Shown piece by piece: positions 23,908 to 53,177 of a stretch of 64,000 nt of DNA. How positions within the stretch are numbered: the first letter of the stretch is position 1; each line of letters starts with the position of its first letter. This DNA is from Actinomycetota bacterium. Lineage in GTDB: Bacteria; Actinomycetota; UBA4738; HRBIN12. The notes below the pieces were generated by a model. It ran no database searches. It saw only the letters and a list, made by a program, of their open reading frames with translations, and was not told the origin of the DNA. The position numbers and the translations under genes are program-made. The DNA lies in the NCBI GenBank assembly GCA_046731295.1, contig JBKPKU010000051.1, forward strand, positions 13,902 to 77,901, given 5' to 3'.

Positions 23908-26451
23908 ATGCGTGCAGCACCCGAGCGCCTGCTGTCACGCTCGCTCGCGCGGGCGACCTCGGGCAAGTCCCTGTCCGTCGACGAGGTCGAGGCGTTGCTG
24001 TCTGCGCGAGGGCCCGCGCTCGCCGACCTCACGTCGCTGGCGTCGAACCTGCGAGAGCTCGGTCACGGCCGCACCGTCACGTACTCGCGCAAGGTGTTCG
24101 TCCCGCTCACGATGCTGTGCCGTGACCACTGTCATTACTGCACGTTCGCCAAGCCGCCGGCCAAGCTGGACCACCCGTTTCTGTCGCCCGATGAGGTCGT
24201 GGCGATCGCCGAGGCGGGGCGGCGCATGGGGTGCAAGGAAGCGTTGTTCACGCTCGGCGACCGGCCCGAGGAGCGGTACGACGTCGCGCGCGCCTGGCTT
24301 GCTCAGCGGGGATTCGGATCGACGCTCGAGTACGTGCGCGCCTCCGCGATCCGCGTGATCGAGGAGACCGGGTTGCTCCCGCATCTCAACCCCGGCGTCA
24401 TGTCCTACGAGGAGATGGCCCGCCTCAAGCAGGTGGCGCCCTCGATGGGGTTGATGCTCGAGACCTCCTCTCCCCGGCTGTCCGAGCGCGGGGGTCCGCA
24501 CTTCGGGTCGCCGGACAAGGTCCCCGCCGTGCGCGTGCGCACCATCGAGGACGCCGGTCGGCTGGCGATCCCGTTCACCACGGGGATCCTGGTGGGGATC
24601 GGAGAGACGCTCGCCGAACGAGCGGCGTCGCTGCTCTCGATCCGCGAGATCCACCGCCGGTACCGGCACGTCCAGGAGGTGATCGTCCAGAACTTCCGGG
24701 CCAAGCCCGGCACGGCGATGCACGACGCGCCCGAACCCGGAGACGAGGAGTTCCTGGCCACCGTTGCGACCGCCAGGGTCGTCTTCGGCCCGCGGATGCA
24801 TGTGCAGGCGCCGCCCAACCTGTCGGATCCAGAACAGCAGCTCCGGCTGCTCGACGCCGGGATCGATGATTGGGGCGGCGTCTCGCCGCTCACGCCCGAC
24901 CACGTGAACCCCGAGCGCCCGTGGCCGGCGATCGAGCGCCTAACCGCCCGGACCGCCGAGCGCGGGCTCGAGCTGCGCGAGCGCCTGACGATCTACCCCG
25001 AGTTCGCGCTGCGGCCCTCGTCGTTTCTGGCCGGCAGGATGCGGGCCCCGGTCGAGGCGCTCATGGCCCCGGATGGCTTGGCCGTGCCCGGCGCGATCGC
25101 CCGGCCGATCCCCTGGCAGGACCCGGATATCTCCTGGAAGCCGCGCACGACCGAGCTGACGTTCGCCAAGGGCCGCGGCTCGGGGCTCCGATCGGACGCC
25201 GACGTCGTCTACGGCACGGCCGACCTCCCCGAGCGCACCCTGGCGTGGCGTTCGGAGCGGGTGTCGCCCCGGCGGCTCGAGGGGCAGATCCGCTCGGCCC
25301 TGTCGAAGGCCGAGGCGCACCGCCCGATCACGGACGAGGAGGCGATGGCGCTGTTCCGAGCGGACGGCGATGCACTCGAGGCCCTGTGCGGGGTCGCCGA
25401 CGGACTACGCGAGGAGGCCGTCGGCGATGCGGTCACGTACGTCGTGAACCGCAACATCAACTTCACCAACGTGTGCTACGTGGGGTGCCGCTTCTGTGCG
25501 TTCGCCCAGCGCGAGGTCGACCCCGAGTCGTACACGCTGACGCTGGCAGAGGTGGCCGACCGCGCTCGCGAGGCCGCCGCGTGGGGATGCACCGAGGTGT
25601 GCATGCAGGGCGGGATCCATCCCGACCTCCCCGGATCCTTCTACTTCGATCTGCTCGACGCCGTGCGCGAAGCGGCGCCGGATATCCACATCCACGCGTT
25701 CAGCCCCATGGAGGTGATGAACGGCTCGACCAAGCTCGGCATCTCGTTCCGCGAGTTCCTGCAGGAATGCCGGGCGCACGGGCTGGGCACGATCCCGGGC
25801 ACCGCGGCCGAGATCCTGGACGACGACGTGCGCTGGGTGCTGACCAGGGGAAAACTGCCGGCCGACGCGTGGGAGCGGATCGTTCGAACCGCGCACGACC
25901 TCGGGATCCGCAGCTCGTCCACGATCATGTTCGGGCACGTCGACGCGCCCCCGCATTGGATTTTCCACATCCGGCGCATCGCGAACATCCAGCGTGACAC
26001 CGGCGGATTCACCGAGTTCGTTCCCCTGCCGTTCGTGCACCAGAACGCCCCGATCTACCTCGCCGGGAAGGCGCGCCCCGGTCCCTCATTCGAGGACGAC
26101 CGGCGCATGCACGCGGTTGCGCGCATCCTGCTCGACCGAGTTATCCACAACGTTCAGGTGTCGTGGGTGAAGATGGGCGTGCGGGCCTGTCAGACGATCC
26201 TGAACGGCGGCGCGAACGATTTCGGCGGTACGTTGATGGAGGAAACGATCAGTCGCATGGCCGGCGCCGAATGGGGGATCCGCATGGAACCGTCGCAGAT
26301 CCGCGATGCGATCACGGCGATCGGCCGCATCCCCGTCGAACGCAGCACCACGTACGAACCGTTGCAGCGCAATGAGTTCAGCCATGTATCTGACGGTGCA
26401 CACGGCGACCACGAGGCCTCGAGACGCGAGGGGCCCGGCTCGAACGCCTGA
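23908..26451 (+). CDS. fbiC: FO (7,8-didemethyl-8-hydroxy-5-deazariboflavin) synthase, fused CofG/CofH radical-SAM domains
   Basis: Two radical-SAM cysteine motifs (CRDHCHYCTF and CYVGCRFCAF) in one roughly 850-aa protein. Start chosen at ATG 23908 (MRAAPERLL). Confidence 0.9.
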   Translation: MRAAPERLLSRSLARATSGKSLSVDEVEALLSARGPALADLTSLASNLRELGHGRTVTYSRKVFVPLTMLCRDHCHYCTFAKPPAKLDHPFLSPDEVVAIAEAGRRMGCKEALFTLGDRPEERYDVARAWLAQRGFGSTLEYVRASAIRVIEETGLLPHLNPGVMSYEEMARLKQVAPSMGLMLETSSPRLSERGGPHFGSPDKVPAVRVRTIEDAGRLAIPFTTGILVGIGETLAERAASLLSIREIHRRYRHVQEVIVQNFRAKPGTAMHDAPEPGDEEFLATVATARVVFGPRMHVQAPPNLSDPEQQLRLLDAGIDDWGGVSPLTPDHVNPERPWPAIERLTARTAERGLELRERLTIYPEFALRPSSFLAGRMRAPVEALMAPDGLAVPGAIARPIPWQDPDISWKPRTTELTFAKGRGSGLRSDADVVYGTADLPERTLAWRSERVSPRRLEGQIRSALSKAEAHRPITDEEAMALFRADGDALEALCGVADGLREEAVGDAVTYVVNRNINFTNVCYVGCRFCAFAQREVDPESYTLTLAEVADRAREAAAWGCTEVCMQGGIHPDLPGSFYFDLLDAVREAAPDIHIHAFSPMEVMNGSTKLGISFREFLQECRAHGLGTIPGTAAEILDDDVRWVLTRGKLPADAWERIVRTAHDLGIRSSSTIMFGHVDAPPHWIFHIRRIANIQRDTGGFTEFVPLPFVHQNAPIYLAGKARPGPSFEDDRRMHAVARILLDRVIHNVQVSWVKMGVRACQTILNGGANDFGGTLMEETISRMAGAEWGIRMEPSQIRDAITAIGRIPVERSTTYEPLQRNEFSHVSDGAHGDHEASRREGPGSNA

Positions 26452-26612
26452 TTCCGTCTAGTTCATTGACCGAACCGGTCAAGCAGATGGACCATCGAAA
26501 TTCTTCGGAGAACCCCTTGCACCTTGCGCCGAGCACGTATTCGATTCCCTGGGGACGCATGTGGAGGAGTTCCATAACTCGAGTTTCCCTCTTGCCAAGA
26601 GGGGGACGGATA

Positions 26613-26642
26613 CCCCAGAATCACACGCGTGTGATTCTGGGG
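26613..26642. promoter_or_regulatory. Perfect 30-bp palindrome 17 nt upstream of the whiB start codon
   Basis: CCCCAGAATCACACG|CGTGTGATTCTGGGG, read directly. The core ATCACA-N4-TGTGAT lies at 26620-26635, and the right arm abuts the GGGGAGAGGG purine tract. Confidence 0.6.
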
Positions 26643-26658
26643 AGAGGGCGGGGCCCGC

Positions 26659-26886
26659 ATGCATCACTACATCCCATGGCAGGAGCGAGCACGGTGCAGG
26701 CAGCACGATCCGGAGGTGTTCTTCCCCGAGAAGGGAGGTTCATCGAGGGAGGCGAAGCGGATCTGCGCGGACTGCCCGGTTCGCATCGAGTGCCTCAACT
26801 ACGCCCTTCGTCGCGATGAGCGGTACGGGGTGTGGGGAGGGATGAGCGAACGAGAGCGGCGACGCCTGAAGCGCATGGCGTCCTGA
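26659..26886 (+). CDS. whiB: WhiB-family Fe-S redox-sensing transcription factor (WhiB2/WhmD-like by neighbourhood)
   Basis: ARCRQHDPEVFFPE...AKRICADCPVRIECLNYAL...YGVWGGMSERERRRLKR shows the four-Cys pattern and GVWGG turn. Confidence 0.92.
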   Translation: MHHYIPWQERARCRQHDPEVFFPEKGGSSREAKRICADCPVRIECLNYALRRDERYGVWGGMSERERRRLKRMAS

Positions 26887-26906
26887 ACATCGAAAGGGGG
26901 TGACCC

Positions 26907-27260
26907 ATGTCCCCAGCGAGAAAGAGATCGACCGCAGGCAAGAAGGCGGCCGCGACACGCAAGCGGAAGACCGCCGCCCGCAAGACGGCGGCGAAGAAGG
27001 CAGCCGCAACGCGCAAGCGGAAGACCTCGGCGAGGAAGCCCGCGACGCGGAAGTCTCCCAAGCGGAGAACCGCGGGTAAGAAGGCGGCCGCGACGAGGAA
27101 GCGCAAGACTTCCGCCGCTCGCAAGACAACACGGAGAAAGCCCGCCGCCCGCAAGCCGGCGGCGAAGAAGGCGACTCGCAGAAGGACCACGCGCAGGAAG
27201 ACGGCGGCCAAGAAGACCGCTGCGCGTAGACCCAAGAGGCGGACCGCGAAGAAGCGGTAA
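26907..27260 (+). CDS. Highly basic Lys/Arg/Ala/Thr repeat protein (histone-H1-tail-like, putative nucleoid-associated)
   Basis: 117 aa composed almost entirely of K/R/A/T. GKKAAATRKRKT occurs twice and KKAAATRKRKT a third time. A good SD (GAAAGGGGG) lies 6-8 nt before the ATG, 20 nt after the whiB stop, and a strong hairpin follows. Confidence 0.65.
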   Translation: MSPARKRSTAGKKAAATRKRKTAARKTAAKKAAATRKRKTSARKPATRKSPKRRTAGKKAAATRKRKTSAARKTTRRKPAARKPAAKKATRRRTTRRKTAAKKTAARRPKRRTAKKR

Positions 27261-27276
27261 GCGTCGGGTCGAGAAC

Positions 27277-27313
27277 GAACGCGGAAGGGGGGCGTTGCCC
27301 CCCTTCCGCGTTC
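27277..27313 (+). terminator. Perfect 17-bp stem, 3-nt loop hairpin after the whiB/basic-protein pair
   Basis: GAACGCGGAAGGGGGGC-GTT-GCCCCCCTTCCGCGTTC. There is no U-tract, which is common for high-GC actinobacterial terminators. Confidence 0.7.
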
Positions 27314-27369
27314 GACGAGCATCTCCTGCCTGCTAGGCTGCGCGCCGCCCTCGGGCGGCAACGACCCCA

Positions 27370-30300
27370 ATGGTTACGACGACCGTCGATCCTTCTCGAA
27401 CCTCGAACGAGGTCCACTCGCCGAGCGTGCTCGTCGTCTTGGTCACCCGCGAGGCGGCCGGCTGGCTCCGTGGCTGCCTCGAGTCGCTGGCCGCCCAGAC
27501 CCACCCCCGGCTGGGCGTGGTGGCGGTCGACAACGGCTCGAGCGACGGCACCCTCGAACTCCTCCATCAGGCGCTGGGCGCTGGGCGCGTCGTGGCGCTC
27601 GGACAGAACCGGGGTCTCGCCGGGGCGCTGGCCGCCGCGACCGAACTCGCGCCGGCCAGGGCCGCCGACTACCTCCTCTTGGTGCACGACGACGCGGCGC
27701 TCGCGCCGGACGCGGTCGAGCGCCTGCTCGAGAGTGCCGAGGGCATCAAGGGGGTCGAGCGCGTGGGTGTGGTCGGGCCCAAGGTCGTCGATTGGGACGA
27801 CCCGCGGATCCTGCGCGAGGTCGGCCGATCCACGGACCGGTTCGGTCACCCGTACTCGCCCCTGCAAGACGGCGAGCTCGACCAAGGCCAATACGACCGG
27901 GTCCTGGAGGTCCTTTTCGTCTCCTCGGCGGTGATGCTGGTCTCGCGGGAGGCCTGGCAGCGCACGGGGCCGTTCGATGAGCGCTTCTCCGGGCACCACG
28001 ACGACCTGGACTTCTGCTGGCGGGCGCGCCTTGCGGGGTTCCGCGTCCTGATGACCCCCCTCGCCACCGCCCGGCACCGGGACGCCTCCGCGCGCGGCGA
28101 GCGGCCGCCCGAGGAGCGGCATCGCAGCACGCGCTACTACGCCGCGCGGGCGGCCCTGGCCTCGATGCTGAAGGACTACGGGGTCCTGACCCTGCTCTGG
28201 CTGTTGCCCGTGTATGCGGTCGTCGGGCTCGCGCGCGTCGTGTACGCGGCCCTGGCGCGCCGCTTCGAGGATGCCTTCGACCTGCTGACCGCCTGGGGAT
28301 GGAACATCCTCCACATGCCCGGGACGCTTCGGCGCCGGGTCCGGGCGCAGGCCGTCCGGTCGGTCGCCGACCGAAAGATCCGCCCCTTCATGGCCTCCAC
28401 GTTCCGGCTGCCGAGGTGGTTCGAGCAAGCCGAGGCGTTCCTGGACGAGGGCCTGGAGGAGATCTCCGGGGAAGAGGACGACCGTCCGCTGCCGCGAAAG
28501 GCGGCCGGCGTGGCGGCGGGGCATCCCGTGCTGCTCGGGTCGATCATCGCGATCGGGCTGTGCGCGCTCGCCGTCCGCGCGTTCGTCGGACCCGAGGTGC
28601 TCACCGGCGGCGCCTTGGCCGCGTTCCCGGCCCAGGCGGCCGGCTTCTTCCGCGAGCTCGGCTCCGCCGTTCGAACGACGGTGCTGGGTGGGGTTCAGCC
28701 GGGGAGCCCGGCGCTGGCGGCGATGGGTGCGGGCTCCTGGGTCGCCTTCGGCAGCACGGCCCTGGCGCAGAAGGTCTTCCTCGGGGCGATGCCCGCGATC
28801 GCCGGGATCGTCATGTACCGCGCGATGGCACGGGAGACGGGCTCCCCCGCGTCCTCGGTGGTGGCCGCCGGGGCGTACGTTCTGTCGGCGCTCATGCTGT
28901 GGGCCTTCTCCGAGGGCAGGCTCTCCCTGCTCGTGGCCCTCGCCGTACTGCCGTTCGCCTGGGACCGGATCGACGCCGCGTTCCGGCGCCGGGCCCCCGA
29001 ACGCCCGTACCGGTCCGCGGTCGGGTTCGGGGTGGCGCTGGCGATCGGTGGCGCGTTCGCGCCCTCGATCGCCCTGCCCATCGGGGCGTTCGCGATCGTG
29101 AACCTCCTGGCCGGCAGGCGCCGCGATCGTGGCACGGTGCTGGTGGCCCTCGGCATTTTCGCCGCGGTCCTGCTCGCGTTCCCGGTGGTGCTGGCGGCCG
29201 CTGGCGATCCGGCCGCCGCGCTCGCGTCCGACATCGGTAGGCCCGACGTCTGGTCGTTGCTGCGCCTGGCGCCCGGCGACGGCCCGGGCACCTGGGCGGT
29301 CGCGGCCTTCCTACCTATCGCGGCCATCGTCTGCTTCGCGGGCGCCGCCGACCCGCAGCGTGGCCGCGCGTGGCGCGCACTGCTCGTGGCGGTGGCGGGG
29401 ACCGTGCTTGCGTGGGCGTCGGTGGCCGGCTACCTCCCGGCGGCGTTGACGAACGCGCCCGCATGGCTCGCCGCCGCCGCGGTCGTCGAGAGTGCTCTGA
29501 TCGCCTACGGGCTGTCGACGTTCGCTCGTGGGCTCGGCCGGCAGGCGTTCGGGTTCCGGCAGCTCGGCGTCGCGGTCCTGTCGGTGGTGCTGACGGTGGG
29601 TGTCCTGGCCCAGGCACTACAGGTCACGTTCGCCGACTGGGCGGTGCGTCCCGGTGGCCTGCCGCCCGCGTGGCCGGTGATCGCCTCGAGCGCGCCCGGG
29701 CCCTTCCGGATCCTGTGGCTCGGAGCCCCCAACGGCGAGCCGTTCCCCGCTCCGGGCGGGGATCCGATCGGGCTCGCCCAGGCGGGGGATGCGACCGTTC
29801 GGTTCGGTCTGACCGATCGCGACGGCGTGTCGGCGCTCGACGACGGCCGCGCGCGATCCGGACCCGGCTACGATCATCTGCACGAGATCGTGCTCGACCT
29901 CGTGGCCGGGGGAACGCGCCACGCGGGCGCGTTGCTGGGCACGTACGGCGTGCGGTTCGTCGTGTCGGCCGAAGGGGACCTACCCGGCGTCGCGCGCGAA
30001 CGCCTGCTCGAGCAGCTCGACCTCGACCGCGTCCCGGCCGGCGGGCTCACGATCTTCCGAAACGCGGCGACCCTGCCGACGACGTTCGTCTCGGCGAACG
30101 CGTCGGTGCCCGACCGCTTCGTGCCCGCCGAGATCCAGTCCTCGCCCGCGGTCGCCGGCACCGAGCTCGACGGCGGGGGGGAGCGGTTCTCGGGTGCCGC
30201 CGCCGAGCCGGGGCACGTCGTGGTGACCCAGCAGTTCGACGGCGGCTGGAACGTGGACAACGGCGGCCGGGCGGTCGAGCCGTTCGAGGGCTACGGTTGG

Positions 30301-30438
30301 GCGATCGCCGCGCCCGTGCAGGCCGGCGACGTCGTCGTCCGGTTCACGCAGCAGTGGGTCCGCACCGCCGAGATGGTGCTGCTCGGCCTGCTGTGGGCCG
30401 CGGCGCTGTGGATCACACGCAAGCCGGGGTCGGCGTGA
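27370..30438 (+). CDS. GT2-family glycosyltransferase fused to a large polytopic membrane domain and C-terminal extracytoplasmic domain
   Basis: The N-terminal roughly 300 aa are GT-A/GT2-like (VLVVLVTRE...VVAVDNGSSDGT...LLLVHDDAAL...SSAVMLVSREAWQRTGPFDERF). More than 12 hydrophobic segments follow. Confidence 0.85.
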   Translation: MVTTTVDPSRTSNEVHSPSVLVVLVTREAAGWLRGCLESLAAQTHPRLGVVAVDNGSSDGTLELLHQALGAGRVVALGQNRGLAGALAAATELAPARAADYLLLVHDDAALAPDAVERLLESAEGIKGVERVGVVGPKVVDWDDPRILREVGRSTDRFGHPYSPLQDGELDQGQYDRVLEVLFVSSAVMLVSREAWQRTGPFDERFSGHHDDLDFCWRARLAGFRVLMTPLATARHRDASARGERPPEERHRSTRYYAARAALASMLKDYGVLTLLWLLPVYAVVGLARVVYAALARRFEDAFDLLTAWGWNILHMPGTLRRRVRAQAVRSVADRKIRPFMASTFRLPRWFEQAEAFLDEGLEEISGEEDDRPLPRKAAGVAAGHPVLLGSIIAIGLCALAVRAFVGPEVLTGGALAAFPAQAAGFFRELGSAVRTTVLGGVQPGSPALAAMGAGSWVAFGSTALAQKVFLGAMPAIAGIVMYRAMARETGSPASSVVAAGAYVLSALMLWAFSEGRLSLLVALAVLPFAWDRIDAAFRRRAPERPYRSAVGFGVALAIGGAFAPSIALPIGAFAIVNLLAGRRRDRGTVLVALGIFAAVLLAFPVVLAAAGDPAAALASDIGRPDVWSLLRLAPGDGPGTWAVAAFLPIAAIVCFAGAADPQRGRAWRALLVAVAGTVLAWASVAGYLPAALTNAPAWLAAAAVVESALIAYGLSTFARGLGRQAFGFRQLGVAVLSVVLTVGVLAQALQVTFADWAVRPGGLPPAWPVIASSAPGPFRILWLGAPNGEPFPAPGGDPIGLAQAGDATVRFGLTDRDGVSALDDGRARSGPGYDHLHEIVLDLVAGGTRHAGALLGTYGVRFVVSAEGDLPGVARERLLEQLDLDRVPAGGLTIFRNAATLPTTFVSANASVPDRFVPAEIQSSPAVAGTELDGGGERFSGAAAEPGHVVVTQQFDGGWNVDNGGRAVEPFEGYGWAIAAPVQAGDVVVRFTQQWVRTAEMVLLGLLWAAALWITRKPGSA

Positions 30439-31814
30439 GGAAGCTCCAGACGGTCGTCGCGATCCTCGTCCCGGTGGTGCTGCTCGCCGGCGCGGCGTAC
30501 GCGCAGCGCGAGCTCACCTCGCGGTCGTTCGAGGCGATCGAACGACCGGAGAGCTCGGGCGCGTGGTTCTGTCCGCACGGCGGCGGCCCGGATGGCTGGG
30601 ACGTCCAGCTCCAGGTCGCGAACCCCGGGTCACGAACGGCGACCATCCGCGTGCGCTCGCTCGGCCAGGACAAGCCCCCCGAACCCCAGACGCTCCAGGT
30701 CGATCCGGGCGCGTTCGTTCGCGTCCCCGTGTCGGGGGACGGCAGGGGCAGCGCGTCGGTCGTCGAGTGGTTCGGCCAGTGGGTGGCGGTGGGCTGGCTG
30801 GCCCATGCCGGCGGCGAGGAGACGGGTGTCGCGGCAGAACCCTGCGCGCCGGCGGCCGGCGACCGGTGGCTCCTGCCCGACGGCGTCACCGAGACCGAGG
30901 ACGACGAGGCGTATCTCGTGGTCATGAACCCGTTCGCGCGCGAGGCGGTGTTCTCCATCACCCTGCTCGGCCGGCGCGAGCCCGTGCAGCACAGCTCGAC
31001 GACCGACGTGGCCCTGAAGCCGTTCCGGAGCACCGCGTTCCGCCTCGGTCAGATCCTGTCCGGCGAGCCGACGGTGGCCGCGATCGTCGACGTCTCGGTC
31101 GGGCGCGTGGCGGCCGCGTCGCTCGGCGTCACCGTTTCCGGCGGCATCCGGTCGGCCCTCGGGTACCTCGGGACGCCGCCGAGGGACCTCACCTTCCCGG
31201 GGGGTCACGATGCGGGCCGGACGCAGCTCCCGGTGATGAACGCGAGCCCCACGCAGGAGGGCGGGCGCGCGTCCGTGGACGGCAACATCCTGGGTGAGGG
31301 CCAGTCGCCACAGGCGTTCGCCGGACTGGCCGAGTCGAGCCTGCCGCCGATGTCCGCGCGCACCTTTCCGGCCACGACCTCGGTCCCGTCCTCGATCCGG
31401 CTGGAGGTCTCCGCGGACCGGATGGCTGCCGTTCGCCGGACGTTCGGCAGCGTGTCCGATCAGGCGGCGGTCACCGGCGCGGAGCCGACGACGTCGTGGC
31501 TCGTCCTCCCCACCGTCGCGGGGTCGCCGTCGCACCCCGGTCTCGTCCTGGCCAACCCGGGGACCAAGCCCACCGAGGTTGCCCTCTCGTTCCTTTCGCC
31601 GGGGCCGGATCGGCAGGTCACGGTGACCGTGCCGCCGCAGTCGACCGCCGAGGCCCCCGAGCGGTTCCTGAACGTCGCCCCGCAGGTCGGGGTGTTGGCG
31701 AGGGCCTCATCGGGAACATTCGTTCCGGCTTCGGCGTCCTACTCCCTCGGTATCGAGGGGTTCGCGGGGTACGCCGTGGCCCTCGGGATCCCGATCGCGA
31801 GGGGCGCGTCGTAG
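30435..31814 (+). CDS. Membrane-anchored secreted protein (resembles the actinobacterial DUF5719 type, from memory)
   Basis: The GTG start overlaps the GT2 stop (GTGA at 30435-30438). It reads VRKLQTVVAILVPVVLLAGAAYA as a signal/anchor, then a beta-rich sequence. The track ORF from 29370 is an off-composition extension. Confidence 0.7.
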   Translation: MRKLQTVVAILVPVVLLAGAAYAQRELTSRSFEAIERPESSGAWFCPHGGGPDGWDVQLQVANPGSRTATIRVRSLGQDKPPEPQTLQVDPGAFVRVPVSGDGRGSASVVEWFGQWVAVGWLAHAGGEETGVAAEPCAPAAGDRWLLPDGVTETEDDEAYLVVMNPFAREAVFSITLLGRREPVQHSSTTDVALKPFRSTAFRLGQILSGEPTVAAIVDVSVGRVAAASLGVTVSGGIRSALGYLGTPPRDLTFPGGHDAGRTQLPVMNASPTQEGGRASVDGNILGEGQSPQAFAGLAESSLPPMSARTFPATTSVPSSIRLEVSADRMAAVRRTFGSVSDQAAVTGAEPTTSWLVLPTVAGSPSHPGLVLANPGTKPTEVALSFLSPGPDRQVTVTVPPQSTAEAPERFLNVAPQVGVLARASSGTFVPASASYSLGIEGFAGYAVALGIPIARGAS

Positions 31815-31937
31815 GGCGGCGGCCCTACAGGCGATCCGGGGTCGTACCCGGCGGGCGCGACCCCCTATGATGTGCCCGCACGCAACGGACGATGAACCCG
31901 GGGCGATGGACCGGGGGCAAGAACGGAGAGGATCGCG

Positions 31938-32993
31938 GTGGCTCGAGCGAAGCACCGACGGGGACGCCGGTGGGTGGTCGTGGCCGTCTCTCTGGGCGTG
32001 GTCCTGCTGGTCTCGGGCGGGACCGCGTTCGCCGCCTATCGCTACGACGCCTCCACCTCGGACCGGATCCTTCCCGGCATCACGATCGCGGGCGTCGACG
32101 TGGGTGGCATGCGGCGCGACGAGGCCGTTCGAACGCTCCGCGAGAAGGCCGAGGAGACCCTGTACAGCGACCTGGTCGTCCGGGCCGCGGGACGGTCGTG
32201 GACCGTGACGCCTGCCTCGCTCGGCATGACCGCCGACGTGGAGGGGTCGGTGTCGCGGGCGTTCGCGGTCGCCGACCAGATGTCGTTCGCGTCGCGGGTA
32301 TACCATCGCCTGCGCGACCAGCCGGTCGACGTCTCGATAGACCTGCCGTTCCTCGAGGATCGGGGCGGCGTCAAGACGTTCGTCCAGCAGGCGTTCGACG
32401 AGGTCTCGGTGCCCGCCGTCGACGCCCGGTTCGCGCTGGTCGACGGCGAGCTCGTGACCGGCCGCTCGCACACGGGGAGGGAGCTCGCCGTGCACGAGGC
32501 GACGGCGCGGATCCTCCACGCACTGTCCGATCGCGCCGAAGAGGTCTCCGTCCCGGTCCGAACGCTCGACCCGAAGGTCACGACCGCCTCGCTCGGTCCG
32601 TCGATCGTGGTGGACCTGTCCGAGAACCAGCTCTACCTGTACGACGGCCTCCACGTCGTCAAGCACTACCCGGTCGCGACCGCGGCTCCCGGTTACGAGA
32701 CGCCCGTCGGGAATTGGCAGATCGTGAACAAGGTCGAGAACCCGACCTGGTACAACCCGGCCCTCGACACGTGGGGGGCCGACCTCCCGCCGGTGATCGA
32801 GCCGGGGCCCGGCAACCCGCTCGGGACCCGCGCGCTCTACCTCAACGCCCCGGGCATCCGCATCCACGGCACGTACAGCTCGTCCTCCATCGGCACGTAC
32901 GCCTCGCACGGATGCATCCGGATGTTCATCTCGGACTCCGAGGACCTGTACGGGCGCGTCCCGATGGGGACCCGCGTCATCATCAAGGCGTAG
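31938..32993 (+). CDS. L,D-transpeptidase (YkuD domain) with N-terminal anchor and pre-catalytic domains
   Basis: The C-terminus reads YPVATAAPGYETPVGNWQI...NPLGTRALYL...IRIHGT...SHGCIRM, the catalytic His/Cys motif. Confidence 0.9.
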   Translation: MARAKHRRGRRWVVVAVSLGVVLLVSGGTAFAAYRYDASTSDRILPGITIAGVDVGGMRRDEAVRTLREKAEETLYSDLVVRAAGRSWTVTPASLGMTADVEGSVSRAFAVADQMSFASRVYHRLRDQPVDVSIDLPFLEDRGGVKTFVQQAFDEVSVPAVDARFALVDGELVTGRSHTGRELAVHEATARILHALSDRAEEVSVPVRTLDPKVTTASLGPSIVVDLSENQLYLYDGLHVVKHYPVATAAPGYETPVGNWQIVNKVENPTWYNPALDTWGADLPPVIEPGPGNPLGTRALYLNAPGIRIHGTYSSSSIGTYASHGCIRMFISDSEDLYGRVPMGTRVIIKA

Positions 32994-33015
32994 CGCCCTG
33001 GCGGGGCCCGGTTGC

Positions 33016-33043
33016 TTGAAATCACATCCGTGTGATCTACGCT
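33016..33043 (+). promoter_or_regulatory. Sigma-70-type promoter (TTGAAA-16 nt-TACGCT) with a 16-bp dyad ATCACAtccgTGTGAT filling the spacer
   Basis: -35 at 33016-33021 and -10 at 33038-33043. ATG 33050 lies 7 nt after the -10, implying a leaderless mRNA. The dyad at 33021-33036 has the same half-sites as the whiB palindrome core. Confidence 0.5.
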
Positions 33044-33049
33044 TGCCCC

Positions 33050-33259
33050 ATGCGGACGTGTTCGAGGATCCGGTGCTCCACGTTGGCCACGGCCACGGCC
33101 GCGATGCGCTACGACGAGCGGTCGATCCTGCTGCTCGATCTCGTGGCCGACCCCGACCCGGGGCTCGTGGACCTGTGCCCAGACCACGCGGCCCGGCTCA
33201 CGCCTCCGATGGGGTGGGCGATCGCCGACCTGCGCGTCGCGTCGGCGGTCCCGGCCTGA
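33050..33259 (+). CDS. DUF3499-type small protein
   Basis: MRTCSRIRCSTLATATAAMRYDERSILLLDLV...LCPDHAARLTPPMGWAI matches the actinobacterial DUF3499 pattern, which is usually found next to phosphomannomutase. Confidence 0.75.
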   Translation: MRTCSRIRCSTLATATAAMRYDERSILLLDLVADPDPGLVDLCPDHAARLTPPMGWAIADLRVASAVPA

Positions 33260-33417
33260 CCGTCGGGAGCTGGGTGTCCCCTCGAGCCCGAGGCGTGTCC
33301 CCCGGACGGCCGTTCGTCCTCGCATGCTGGAGGACCGTGGCGTGGCCCGAGCCGGTGTGCAGATCTGAGACCTCCGTGCTATGTGCTCCGATGCGCCCCG
33401 CGCCCGAGGATTGACCC

Positions 33418-33609
33418 ATGGACGGCAAGCCCGAAGGCACCTGTCCCGTCTGCCATCAAGGCGACCTGATCTCGATCTCGATGAACGTGGGCGGCAACGA
33501 CCTGTCCTTCACGACGTGCCACATGTGCGAGGCCAAGTGGTGGTACCGGGACGGCGAAAGCGTCCCCCTCCGGGCGGTCATCGGCTCGGTCCTGCAGCAG
33601 GAGAGCTGA
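33418..33609 (+). CDS. Small CxxH...HxC protein (zinc-ribbon-like candidate)
   Basis: 63 aa with CPVCH...TCHMCE. Protein-like composition. Confidence 0.55.
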   Translation: MDGKPEGTCPVCHQGDLISISMNVGGNDLSFTTCHMCEAKWWYRDGESVPLRAVIGSVLQQES

Positions 33610-33628: not shown

Positions 33629-34993
33629 GTGACCGTGCCGCATCGAGAACTCGGCCCCATCTTCAAGGCCTACGACGTTCGCGGCGTCGTTCCCGACGAG
33701 CTCGACGAGGAACGCGCCCGGGCCATCGGTGCCGCGTTCGCCGAGTGGTCCGGGATCGGATCGGTCGCGGTGGGACGCGACTGCCGCATGTCTTCGCCGT
33801 CGCTCGCAGCCGCGGTGAGCGAGGGAGTCGTCTCGCGCGGCGCCGACGTCATCGACCTCGGGCTCGCATCCACCGACCTGCTGTACTTCGCGTCCGGCTC
33901 GCTGGAGGTGGCGGGCGTGATGCTGACGGCGAGCCACAACCCGCCCGCATACAACGGCCTGAAGTTCTGTCTGCCGGGCGCGCGCCCCGTCGGACAGGAC
34001 ACCGGCCTGGTCGAGATCCGGGACGTCGCCGAGAACATGTCCTTCGGAGTTGGCCCCGGGAGGGGGTCGGTCACCGAGCGTGACCTGCTGGATGCGTACG
34101 TCGAACACGTGCTGTCGTTCGTGGACGTCGAGGCGATGCGTCCACTCACCGTCGTGGCCGACACCGCCAACGGCATGGGGGGCCTCGTCGTACCGCCTGT
34201 GTTCGAACACCTGCCGATGACGCTCGTGCACCTGTTCCCGGAGCTCGACGGGACATTCCCGAACCATCCGGCCGACCCGATCGACCCCGAGAATCTCCGC
34301 GACCTGCAGCGCGCGGTGCTCGAGCGCGACGCCGACGTCGGGCTCGCGTTCGACGGCGACGCCGATCGCGTGTTCCTGGTCGACGAGCGCGCCGAGGGCG
34401 TGAGTGGCTCGGACGTGACCGCGCTCGTCGCCGCGGCGATCCTGGACCGGCATCCGGGCGAGACGGTCGTCCACAACCTGATCTGTTCCTGGGCGGTGCC
34501 CGAGGTGATCCGCGATCACGGTGGTGTGCCGGTGCGTACGCGCGTCGGGCACTCGTTCATCAAGCAGGTGATGGCCGAGACCGGAGCGATCTTCGGGGGC
34601 GAGCACTCGGGGCACTACTACTTCCGGGAGAACTACCGGGCCGACTCGGGCCTGATCGCGGCCGTCGTGGTGCTCGAGCAGCTCTCGCGGGCAGACGCGC
34701 CCCTCTCCCTGGTGCTGGCGCCGTACCGTCGATATCGCTCCTCGGGCGAGGTCAACTCCAGGGTCCTGGACCAGGACGGCAAGATCGAGGAGATCGCGCG
34801 CACCTACGCGGACGGGCGCGAGGACCGCCTGGACGGCCTGACGGTAGAGTTCGAGGACTGGTGGTTCAACGTGCGCCCGAGCAACACCGAACCCCTGCTG
34901 CGGCTGAACGTGGAGGCGCGGACCGACGAGCTCCTGCAGGAGAAGACGGCCGAGCTCCTGGAGCTGATCCGACGTGAAGGAGGACCGACGTGA
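33629..34993 (+). CDS. Phosphomannomutase/phosphoglucomutase
   Basis: FKAYDVRG...MLTASHNPPAYNGLKF (active-site Ser loop)...FDGDADR...GGEHSGH. Confidence 0.92.
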   Translation: MTVPHRELGPIFKAYDVRGVVPDELDEERARAIGAAFAEWSGIGSVAVGRDCRMSSPSLAAAVSEGVVSRGADVIDLGLASTDLLYFASGSLEVAGVMLTASHNPPAYNGLKFCLPGARPVGQDTGLVEIRDVAENMSFGVGPGRGSVTERDLLDAYVEHVLSFVDVEAMRPLTVVADTANGMGGLVVPPVFEHLPMTLVHLFPELDGTFPNHPADPIDPENLRDLQRAVLERDADVGLAFDGDADRVFLVDERAEGVSGSDVTALVAAAILDRHPGETVVHNLICSWAVPEVIRDHGGVPVRTRVGHSFIKQVMAETGAIFGGEHSGHYYFRENYRADSGLIAAVVVLEQLSRADAPLSLVLAPYRRYRSSGEVNSRVLDQDGKIEEIARTYADGREDRLDGLTVEFEDWWFNVRPSNTEPLLRLNVEARTDELLQEKTAELLELIRREGGPT

Positions 34994-35193
34994 CACTGGA
35001 TGCGGAGCTGCTCGAGATCCTCGTGTGTCCCAACGACCGCGGCGAGCTCGATTACCAGCAGGACCCCGAGGTCCTCGAATGCCGCACGTGCGGCTACCGG
35101 TACCCGGTCCGCGACGGGATCCCCGTCATGCTGATCGACGAGGCGGAGAAGCCCTCCACCCCTCGAAAGCCCTCCGCCAAGAAGAAGCGGTGA
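34990..35193 (+). CDS. Trm112-family small zinc-ribbon protein
   Basis: LLEILVCPNDRGELDY...LECRTCGYRYPVRDGIPVMLIDEA. There are GTGA overlaps at both ends (34990-34993 and 35190-35193). Confidence 0.8.
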   Translation: MTLDAELLEILVCPNDRGELDYQQDPEVLECRTCGYRYPVRDGIPVMLIDEAEKPSTPRKPSAKKKR

Positions 35194-39086: not shown

Positions 39087-39893
39087 ATGCTGGCCCCGCT
39101 GCTCGACGCGCTGTTCCCCAAGCGATGCGCCGGGTGCGGCTCGGGGCCCTGGCCGTTCTGCGGCGGATGTCGCTCCGACCTCGTCGTCCTCGGCGAGCCG
39201 CGATGCGAGCGGTGCGGCGCGCCCTGTCCTCGGCCGGTGACCGGATGCCTCGACTGCCCGCCCGCGTCCATCGCGATCGCGCGCGCTTCCTTCGGGTTCG
39301 ACGGCCCGGTGCGCCGGGCCGTGCACCGGCTGAAGTTCGGCGGCTGGCGCTCGGTGGCCGAGGCGCTCGCGGGGGCCATGGCGCGGAGTTGGTCCGCCGA
39401 GGCGTGGCCGGCAGATGTCATCGCGTGGGTGCCGCTGTCGCGGGAGCGGCTCGCCGCGCGCGGGTACGACCAGGCCAGGGCTCTGGCGCGCGCCGTGGCG
39501 CCCCGGGTCGGCTTGCCGGCCGAGGGGCTGCTCCGCCGAGTGGGCGATCCTGGGCCGCAGGCCCGTCGCGGCGGCGCCGCCCGGCGGGAGGCCATGCGTG
39601 GCGTGTTCGCCCCGGCGGGCCGCATCTCGGGACGGGTCCTGCTGATCGACGACGTGCTGACCACCGGCGCCACGGGGGGCGCGTGCGGGGAGGCCCTGCT
39701 CTCGGGCGGCGCCTCGAGCGTGGGCCTGCTGACCGCGGCCCGCGCGGTGTCCTCGGCACGACGCCCCGGAACCCCCCCTATACTCGGCGTCGGGCTCGCG
39801 TCCGGGTCTGTGGTTGCCCCGGGGAGCGGCTCCCCGGCAGTCGATGCCAGCCGCGGGCGAAGCGACCCACGTAAGCCGACCCTTGGTCGGTGA
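39087..39893 (+). CDS. ComF-family phosphoribosyltransferase-like protein (ComFC type)
   Basis: N-terminal double CxxC zinc finger (CAGCGS...CGGC, CERCG...CLDC), then RGYDQA and the PRT loop VLLIDDVLTTGAT. The last roughly 45 codons look non-protein-like and may be read-through into the downstream RNA element. Confidence 0.8.
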   Translation: MLAPLLDALFPKRCAGCGSGPWPFCGGCRSDLVVLGEPRCERCGAPCPRPVTGCLDCPPASIAIARASFGFDGPVRRAVHRLKFGGWRSVAEALAGAMARSWSAEAWPADVIAWVPLSRERLAARGYDQARALARAVAPRVGLPAEGLLRRVGDPGPQARRGGAARREAMRGVFAPAGRISGRVLLIDDVLTTGATGGACGEALLSGGASSVGLLTAARAVSSARRPGTPPILGVGLASGSVVAPGSGSPAVDASRGRSDPRKPTLGR

Positions 39894-40035
39894 GCATGGC
39901 GCGGTTTAGATGTAAGTCCTGCCCCGGAGGGGTTCGCCTCGACGGGAGAGGGTGCGAAGCCGCCCGATGGGCGGCGATCATCCCCGCAGGCGGATGTGGG
40001 GACAAAGACCAGGTCAGCCGGACGCGGGCCCGCTC
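39876..40035 (+). ncRNA. Candidate structured RNA, raiA-motif-like by position (between comF and hpf). Boundaries are approximate.
   Basis: A 180-nt non-coding gap with nested helices read by eye: 39876-39890, 39922-39932, 39959-39975, cctgc 39918-22 with gcagg 39986-90, and tcccc 39981-85 with gggga 39998-40002. The genomic context matches the published raiA motif class. Confidence 0.4.
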
Positions 40036-52823: not shown

Positions 52824-53177
52824 GGGGGTGTACTGGCTTCGATCTGGACGGATGCCGTTCAGGAGAAGCGGGCCGAGGTCCCCGGATGCCTCGTTAAAAG
52901 CCGGGACAAACACAAGCGCCGATTCTGAATACGCGCTCGCTGCCTAGGTAGCTAGGTAGCCGTCCCCTCCGGGTCGCCTGCGACCGGAGGATGGGCGTCG
53001 TGAGCAGGCTCACGGATGTGGCTCCGCCCGGGGGCCGCCGCCGGACACCGCACCCGGGCTGGCCGAGAGGTGCTCCGCCGGCGGGAGCCTCGAGGCGAGA
53101 TCGATCCGCCGGCTGCGCCCGGAGAAGCCCTGAGCGGTCGCCCAGAGACAGGGGTTCGAATCCCCTCACCTCCACCA
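52824..53177 (+). ncRNA. ssrA: tmRNA (SsrA)
   Basis: 5' GGGGGUG pairs with CACCUCC-ACCA at the 3' end, including the G3:U wobble. The T-arm is GGGGTTCGAATCCCC. The tag frame ...GCC GAT TCT GAA TAC GCG CTC GCT GCC TAG encodes ADSEYALAA. CGGAGAAGCCCTGAG is similar to the mycobacterial tmRNA I recall. It lies immediately downstream of smpB. Confidence 0.9.

Follow-up and report, generated by a model that had tools for sequence, protein, structure and literature searches.

Which protein reads an inverted repeat that recurs at two promoters of the same locus? The locus lies in the window, by which we mean the whole 64-kb stretch of DNA analysed here, from an uncultured Actinomycetota lineage. One of the two dyads is found at whiB, and the other at the gene for a DUF3499 protein. 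A sequence-only reading of this DNA had seen that the two dyads share half-sites and spacing, and had proposed that one unidentified regulator controls both genes through an operator of no recognised class. The shared half-sites and spacing are confirmed, and because the spacing is invariant and the sites are co-conserved, a single regulator is plausible. The regulator need not be called unidentified, since the 18-mer matches the published motif AATnACAnnnnTGTnATT of McdR/ResR (Rv1830) (PMC9040748), and for the same reason the claim of an unrecognised operator class is not supported. We consider it likely that both dyads are operators for this lineage's McdR/ResR orthologue, and we present below the comparative evidence for this proposal and the readings that compete with it.

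The two sites in the window

Direct reading of the window confirmed every coordinate of the sequence-only reading; the positions are collected in Table 1. The pattern ATCACANNNNTGTGAT, which has 12 specified bases, finds exactly 2 matches in the 64-kb window against 0.00 expected from 100 dinucleotide-preserving shuffles, and no further site appeared in the window when 2 mismatches were tolerated. The motif letters, used as literal text, had no match in the literature searched. Pfam identifies a GT2 glycosyltransferase, DUF5719, a YkuD L,D-transpeptidase and ManB as neighbours of whiB and DUF3499. A regulator encoded nearby was considered and set aside: Pfam and NCBIfam scans of 35 ORFs of the 64-kb window gave no MerR-family gene and no HTH regulator except WhiB. 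Rfam has no known RNA family at either dyad site. Elsewhere in the window, a raiA RNA motif lies at 39797-40026 (+), upstream of an hpf-like gene (143.6 bits), and a tmRNA gene at 52824-53177 (+) adjoins smpB (119.2 bits).

Table 1. Positions in the window of the two promoters, their candidate operators and the associated genes
Feature	Coordinates	Strand	Remarks
whiB -35 hexamer TTGCCA (TTGTCA in most relatives)	26592..26597	+	Part of TTGCCA-18-CAGAAT
Perfect 30-nt palindrome CCCCAGAATCACACG/CGTGTGATTCTGGGG	26613..26642		Outer arms reach past the conserved core
whiB -10 hexamer CAGAAT	26616..26621	+	Final AAT (26619-26621) gives the first three bases of the 18-mer operator
Candidate McdR/ResR-type operator at whiB, AATCACAcgcgTGTGATT	26619..26636		14/14 to AATnACAnnnnTGTnATT; spans the 3' end of the -10 and the predicted TSS (~26628)
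whiB dyad ATCACAcgcgTGTGAT	26620..26635		Within the 30-nt palindrome; whiB ATG (26659) 23 nt downstream
whiB (WhiB/WhiB2 orthologue, 75 aa)	26659..26886	+	Pfam Whib, E 6.7e-29
DUF3499 -35 hexamer TTGAAA	33016..33021	+	Direct reading; GCTTG(R)AA kept in 60/60 loci
Candidate McdR/ResR-type operator at DUF3499, AATCACAtccgTGTGATC	33020..33037		13/14 to AATnACAnnnnTGTnATT; fills the -35/-10 spacer; centre ~-21.5
DUF3499 dyad ATCACAtccgTGTGAT	33021..33036		Direct reading
DUF3499 -10 hexamer TACGCT (TAnnnT)	33038..33043	+	TAnnnT 6-9 nt before the start codon in 60/60 loci
DUF3499 gene	33050..33259	+	Pfam PF12005, E 6.8e-13; ATG 6 nt after the -10
Zn-ribbon ORF, 63 aa, CxxC...CxxC	33418..33609	+	Between DUF3499 and manB
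manB	33629..34993		Downstream of the Zn-ribbon ORF
Trm112-like ORF	34990..35193		Downstream of manB

Conservation in related Actinomycetota

Our comparison set came from a genome scan with ManB and comprises 80 syntenic loci, all of them from MAGs of uncultured Actinomycetota, with ManB identities of 69-80%; the ManB of the window lineage is at most 80% identical to that of any species representative. WhiB is 88-100% identical in these relatives, and the gene order (F420 genes, whiB, GT2, DUF5719, DUF3499, manB) matches that of Streptomyces. In the syntenic loci, the whiB and DUF3499 positions again carry the strict core TCACA-N4-TGTGA, and the dyad is kept at 53/53 whiB loci and at 52 of the 60 DUF3499 loci. 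At whiB, 104 of the 106 half-sites read ATCACA. At DUF3499, the half-sites are ATCACA (77), ATGACA (17) and GTCACA (7), and the two variants are restricted to one arm. The N4 spacer has a constant length in 105 orthologous sites, and its letters vary freely. When the 1.37 Mb of the 80 syntenic loci were scanned with a PWM, no match of 12 bits or more fell outside the whiB and DUF3499 positions. Judged from these sequences, the conservation of the dyad is not explained by chance.

Eight DUF3499 loci (L030, L038, L045, L048, L054, L057, L066 and L070) keep the leaderless promoter described below and have lost the dyad (spacer GCATCGGG...). Six of them (L030, L038, L045, L048, L054 and L057) represent a distinct DUF3499 protein subclade, MR(T/H)CARMSC..., and the whiB operator is still intact in L038, L048, L057 and L066 despite the lost DUF3499 dyad.

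Architecture of the two promoters

The near-canonical promoter and leaderless mRNA claimed for DUF3499 by the sequence-only reading are both supported by the comparison. In 60/60 loci the promoter reads TTGnnn, a spacer of 16-17 nt, TAnnnT, 6-9 nt and then ATG/GTG, with distances from the -10 to the start of 6 nt (14 loci), 7 nt (37), 8 nt (6) and 9 nt (3). That this start codon is residue 1 of the protein is indicated by tblastn alignments, which begin at residue 1 in nearly all loci. The layout is the one by which leaderless actinobacterial genes are recognised, namely TAnnnT 6-8 nt before ATG/GTG with no room for a Shine-Dalgarno sequence, and Streptomyces, Angustibacter, Nocardiopsis and two other Actinomycetes share this geometry from -10 to start but lack the dyad. 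These comparisons support a leaderless DUF3499 mRNA; since the ATG lies 6 nt past the -10, it is the predicted +1. The dyad occupies the spacer of this promoter and contacts both hexamers, as the sequence-only reading had described.

DUF3499, the Zn-ribbon ORF, manB and the Trm112-like ORF likely form one operon with DUF3499 as the first gene; in C. glutamicum, the Man6P/GDP-Man operon is described as opening with cg0853 (DUF3499) (PMC7775120). Small unannotated ORFs also sit between the DUF3499 and manB positions in Angustibacter (L084:16813-17058) and at L086:16152-16409. The DUF3499 protein has invariant C4, C9, C43 and H46, a putative zinc site, and its AlphaFold model (pLDDT 88.7) shows a beta-rich fold. 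A Foldseek search of the PDB with this model returned no significant fold match, DNA-binding or other (best E 0.5), and the fold as modelled is therefore uncharacterised.

At whiB, TTGCCA-18-CAGAAT was the only sigma70-like match returned for 26400-33300. Its -35, as cTTGTCA, stands at a constant distance from the dyad in 53 loci, and the promoter block is kept in all relatives. The window core cTTGTCA-18 nt-CAGAAT, as written in the alignment, aligns with cTTGAC-18 nt-TGTAAT of Streptomyces and other Actinomycetes: the -35 is positionally homologous to the cTTGAC(T/G) of Actinomycetes whiB promoters, and CAGAAT corresponds to their TGTAAT. The Actinomycetes counterpart is whiBp2, the site of BldO action. 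The promoter is thus homologous to mapped promoters, and it places the predicted whiB TSS inside the dyad. Many relatives also share a conserved block (e.g. GAGGGATGAGGCAGRGAACTTCCTCG) that precedes the whiB -35 by 20-60 nt; it lies at about 26530-26590 in the window, has its homologue in L019-L079, and could be a second promoter or an activator site. Directly downstream of whiB, at 26907-27260 (+), lies a gene for a Lys/Arg/Ala-rich, histone-H1/HC2-like protein of 117 aa, which may be co-transcribed with whiB.

Match to the McdR/ResR motif

McdR is described as an essential dimeric regulator of the MerR family, encoded by MSMEG_3644 in M. smegmatis, and ResR/McdR is reported to be conserved across, and exclusive to, actinobacteria. 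Mycobacterial McdR is reported to occupy its motif around the TSS of whiB2 and to repress this gene (Zhou et al. 2022, mBio, PMC9040748). At M. tuberculosis whiB2, the site takes the form AATCACATCAGTGTCATT and lies 1 nt from the TSS, and mutagenesis of the motif showed that changes to the arms or to the spacer length abolish binding, whereas changes to the spacer sequence do not (PMC9040748). In RNA-seq of M. smegmatis overexpressing McdR, expression dropped for whiB2 (log2 -3.46), the DUF3499 orthologue MSMEG_1833 (log2 -1.94, p 1.7e-35), manB (-0.60), nrdH (-0.91) and nrdE (-1.41) (PMC9040748). For the mycobacterial Rv3258c promoter, the same study lists no McdR motif (PMC9040748), and the drop in DUF3499 expression in mycobacteria may be indirect. 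Purified ResR, which is the same protein, has four major M. tuberculosis sites, including whiB2-fbiA and nrdH-Rv3054 (Liu et al. 2022). The sign of the regulation is contested in mycobacteria: McdR is held to be a repressor (PMC9040748) and ResR an activator of whiB2 (Liu et al. 2022).

Written out, the motif is AATnACA-N4-TGTnATT, and Table 1 gives the agreement of the two window sites with its 14 specified positions. The M. tuberculosis whiB2 site has almost the same sequence as the whiB 18-mer of the window. The only frequent arm variant among the relatives, C to G (ATGACA, TGTCAT), falls on an "n" position of the published motif. Moreover, the rules from McdR mutagenesis, essential arms and spacer length with free spacer letters, are what our phylogenetic footprint shows, the 4-nt spacer rule holding over the 105 orthologous sites. 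We regard the whiB dyad as the probable orthologue of a known operator, and the DUF3499 dyad as a new predicted member of the McdR/ResR regulon.

We suggest a plausible mechanism on this basis. At whiB, a dimer bound over the 3' end of the -10 and the TSS would, we infer, block RNA polymerase or open-complex formation. Binding of the McdR orthologue within the DUF3499 spacer would most likely repress too; the spacer has a normal length (16-17 bp), and therefore repression by occlusion is likelier than activation by distortion. This promoter probably drives the DUF3499/Zn-ribbon/manB operon for GDP-mannose supply, so that a single regulator would couple the cell-division regulator WhiB with an envelope-sugar operon.

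Other carriers of the dyad

A metagenome scan with AATCACANNNNTGTGATT as query showed the dyad at other promoters, and the idea of a two-gene regulon private to this lineage was rejected; the counts that follow are lower bounds among the matches listed. On high-GC contigs, the dyad was found at whiB on at least 7 contigs. It was found at promoters of dnaE (DNA polymerase III alpha) on at least 4 contigs, in the order TAnnnT, 5-6 nt, perfect dyad (L151:1192, L158:1971, L164:2538, L097:2767), and these dyads are followed by canonical face-to-face DnaA box pairs with the same N4 spacing. At promoters of the class II RNR gene nrdJ, it occurs, again in perfect form, on at least 2 contigs (L136:6374, L153:7996), 5-6 nt after a TAnnnT -10 and downstream of classical NrdR boxes (CCACAAGATATTGTGG). 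The mycobacterial crgA-Rv0010c spacer carries it on at least 6 contigs (L130, L143, L163, L103, L117, L156), and this position was confirmed in M. vicinigordonae and a Mycolicibacterium (L208:10369; L209:10357). A further candidate regulon member, from a high-GC organism, is a Cys-containing ORF of 62 aa (MPLHTC...CPDC...) at L092:536-754; its SD is immediately preceded by a perfect dyad, which in turn follows a TAAGCT -10 at a distance of 4 nt.

The whiB promoters of class Actinomycetes (L084:9870, L086:9919, L085) carry cATGACAcgcgTGTAATT, a 13/14 match to the McdR motif. It lies about 10 nt further upstream than the window dyad; its right arm is the -10 hexamer TGTAAT, and the BldO repeat TGTAATT(T/C)CA, present at whiB of Streptomyces, Motilibacter and Angustibacter, overlaps it. 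BldO may be a functional or orthologous counterpart of McdR.

Alternative readings of the dyad

Could DnaA itself be the binder? On this account, which we hold to be unlikely, the dyad consists of two non-canonical DnaA boxes that face each other, by which DnaA would repress whiB and the DUF3499 operon, tying division and envelope genes to initiation status. In its favour is the palindrome in the crgA-Rv0010c spacer. This is the "small palindromic region" within the cryptic DnaA interaction site of M. tuberculosis, and clinical strains have acquired convergent mutations there that increase tolerance of isoniazid (Hicks et al. 2020, PMC7738170). The oligonucleotides of that paper give its sequence as AATCACAcgcaTGTGATT; the identical palindrome is the centre of an M. 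tuberculosis region that ranks among the five most strongly bound by DnaA in vitro, and the authors see in it two dnaA-box-like sequences and report that the clinical mutations there phenocopy dnaA mutants (PMC7738170). Our half-sites score 10-13 of 15.2 with the M. tuberculosis DnaA PWM of the same paper. Canonical DnaA boxes abut the dyad at fixed offsets (-9, +16) in 14/36 of the high-GC matches listed, against a background of 0.1 boxes/kb, and the box pairs adjoining the dnaE dyads count on the same side. However, the capture by DnaA concerned a region that includes flanking canonical boxes and not the palindrome alone, and whiB2-fbiA is absent from the DnaA-enriched regions of PMC7738170 that were examined. 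The canonical 9-mer TT(A/G)TCCACA calls for T at position 4 and C at position 5; neither base occurs at its position in any of more than 200 half-sites, and the DnaA PWM penalises the common half-site variants (C6 to G, A4 to G). Moreover, a canonical DnaA box lies within 80 nt at only 2/83 whiB/DUF3499 sites of the window lineage.

Two further accounts give up the McdR/ResR orthologue altogether. A different dimeric helix-turn-helix regulator might bind the dyad, either an Xre/HigA-like protein or the DUF3499/Zn-ribbon product regulating itself, in which case convergence would account for the resemblance to the McdR motif; we think this improbable, because the agreement with that motif extends to sequence, spacing, tolerated position and promoter position. 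The Xre-type antitoxin HigA2 does bind ATCAC-N6-GTGAT in vitro, including the Rv0010c site, but it requires micromolar protein (PMC11205783), and HigBA2 is not a conserved actinobacterial system. An operator within the promoter of the DUF3499 operon is where an autoregulated factor would be expected, and the invariant cysteines and histidine of DUF3499 fit a zinc site; yet its confidently modelled structure matches no solved fold, and the subclade that has lost its own dyad retains an unchanged whiB dyad. With no significant PDB fold match and no co-variation of operator and protein, DUF3499 as an autoregulating DNA-binding protein was dropped except as part of this minor alternative. The other account takes the selected feature to be a nucleic-acid hairpin, either an RNA stem-loop in the whiB 5' UTR or a DNA cruciform. 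The 30-nt whiB palindrome, if fully transcribed, would indeed fold strongly (-29.5 kcal/mol, z -3.15). However, the predicted TSS falls inside it, its outer arms are not conserved as pairs in relatives, and the DUF3499 dyad lies upstream of the predicted leaderless start, hence would be untranscribed, and its region shows no fold excess (z -0.53). It is the sequence of the dyad that is conserved and not its pairing: the C-G pair at columns 6/17 is broken in 16/45 distinct sequences by substitutions in one arm, and overall the pairing is no better than in shuffles. Because no compensatory change is seen across relatives, the conserved object is, from the alignment, two half-sites read independently, that is, the site of a dimeric protein rather than a hairpin, and we rejected the hairpin as very improbable.

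Several known operators were also compared with the dyad and set aside. The BldO operator TGxAATTxCA is absent, the window having CAGAATCACA at the homologous place. The BldD box is TNAC-N5-GTNA, and the dyad, as TCAC-N6-GTGA, is off by 1 bp in spacing at all sites. The NrdR box is a 16-bp palindrome, CACA-N6-TGTG, usually in tandem, and the spacing here is N4. CRP and Rex sites face inward (TGTGA-N6-TCACA or TGTGAA-N4-TTCACA), the opposite order of half-sites from that found at all our sites. The WhiA motif (GACAC) does not fit in spacing, orientation or sequence. MtrA, which binds direct repeats, was considered for the GTCACA half-site and an overlapping regulon; it was given up once the McdR motif had been matched, and the expected neighbourhood in the window contains no mtrAB.

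Discussion

For the window itself, our result is mostly a tidy annotation: two promoters, one of them leaderless, with predicted operators of a known, essential, actinobacteria-specific regulator. Its interest lies in the wider reach of that regulator. So far only mycobacteria were known to have the McdR-whiB link, to which BldO-whiB is functionally analogous in Streptomyces; the link would now extend to a deep uncultured lineage, and therefore it is probably ancestral. At DUF3499, the second operator predicts a direct link between a division checkpoint regulator and a GDP-mannose/envelope operon headed by an uncharacterised protein. To the regulon we would add DUF3499-manB, dnaE and nrdJ as possibly new targets; the shifted match at the whiB promoters of class Actinomycetes, with its right arm as the -10, and the agreement of the Rv0010c-Rv0011c palindrome with the McdR motif are possibly new as well.

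At the "cryptic DnaA site" of M. tuberculosis, the palindrome that is mutated clinically has the same 18-mer. We tentatively suggest, as a possibility rather than an expectation, that the McdR/ResR regulon is ancestral and broader (whiB and, in environmental actinobacteria, DUF3499-manB, dnaE and nrdJ as direct targets) and that the Rv0010c-Rv0011c palindrome is a McdR/ResR operator abutting DnaA boxes. If this is true, dnaA/Rv0010c-Rv0011c and resR/whiB2-fbiA, two loci associated with resistance and discovered separately, would be parts of a single checkpoint circuit of replication and division, with McdR and DnaA converging on the same DNA. The literature searched holds no published link between this palindrome and McdR/ResR, and neither the four major ResR sites nor the five McdR peaks include Rv0010c-Rv0011c.

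Comparison with known systems

Classical MerR promoters (merT, copA, soxS) share with DUF3499 the position of the dyad between the -35 and the -10 of a sigma70-type promoter. Activation of the classical type needs an over-long spacer of 19-20 bp, and the DUF3499 spacer of 16-17 bp does not indicate distortion-activation.

BldO, the dedicated repressor of Streptomyces whiB (Bush et al. 2017, PMC5485038), is of the MerR family like McdR, and its operator overlaps the -10 and TSS of the homologous whiB promoter (whiBp2), holding whiB off. The centre of its repeat lies about 7 nt upstream of the centre of the McdR-type dyad, and BldO has one ChIP-seq target, whereas the dyad here stands at 2 or more genes and at more elsewhere.

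The Rv0010c-Rv0011c palindrome is an identical AATCACA-N4-TGTGATT, conserved across Mycobacteriaceae. Unlike the window sites, it is flanked by canonical DnaA boxes, and it lies between crgA and Rv0010c, off any mapped core promoter. The experimentally shown binder of its region is DnaA: although the copy is a perfect McdR/ResR motif, it was captured by DnaA and is absent from the McdR/ResR screens, and for this reason a match to the motif alone does not guarantee McdR occupancy.

The mycobacterial whiB2 operator of McdR/ResR closely recalls the window sites. It has the same 7-4-7 dyad at the same target gene beside F420 genes, the same position around the TSS (predicted in our case), and the same combination of fixed spacer length and free spacer letters; ribonucleotide-reductase genes are also among the mycobacterial targets. 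The two systems differ in their hosts, the present one being an uncultured and distantly related Actinomycetota lineage, and in the second operator, which in the window lies in the -35/-10 spacer of the leaderless DUF3499-manB promoter, an arrangement unreported for mycobacteria.
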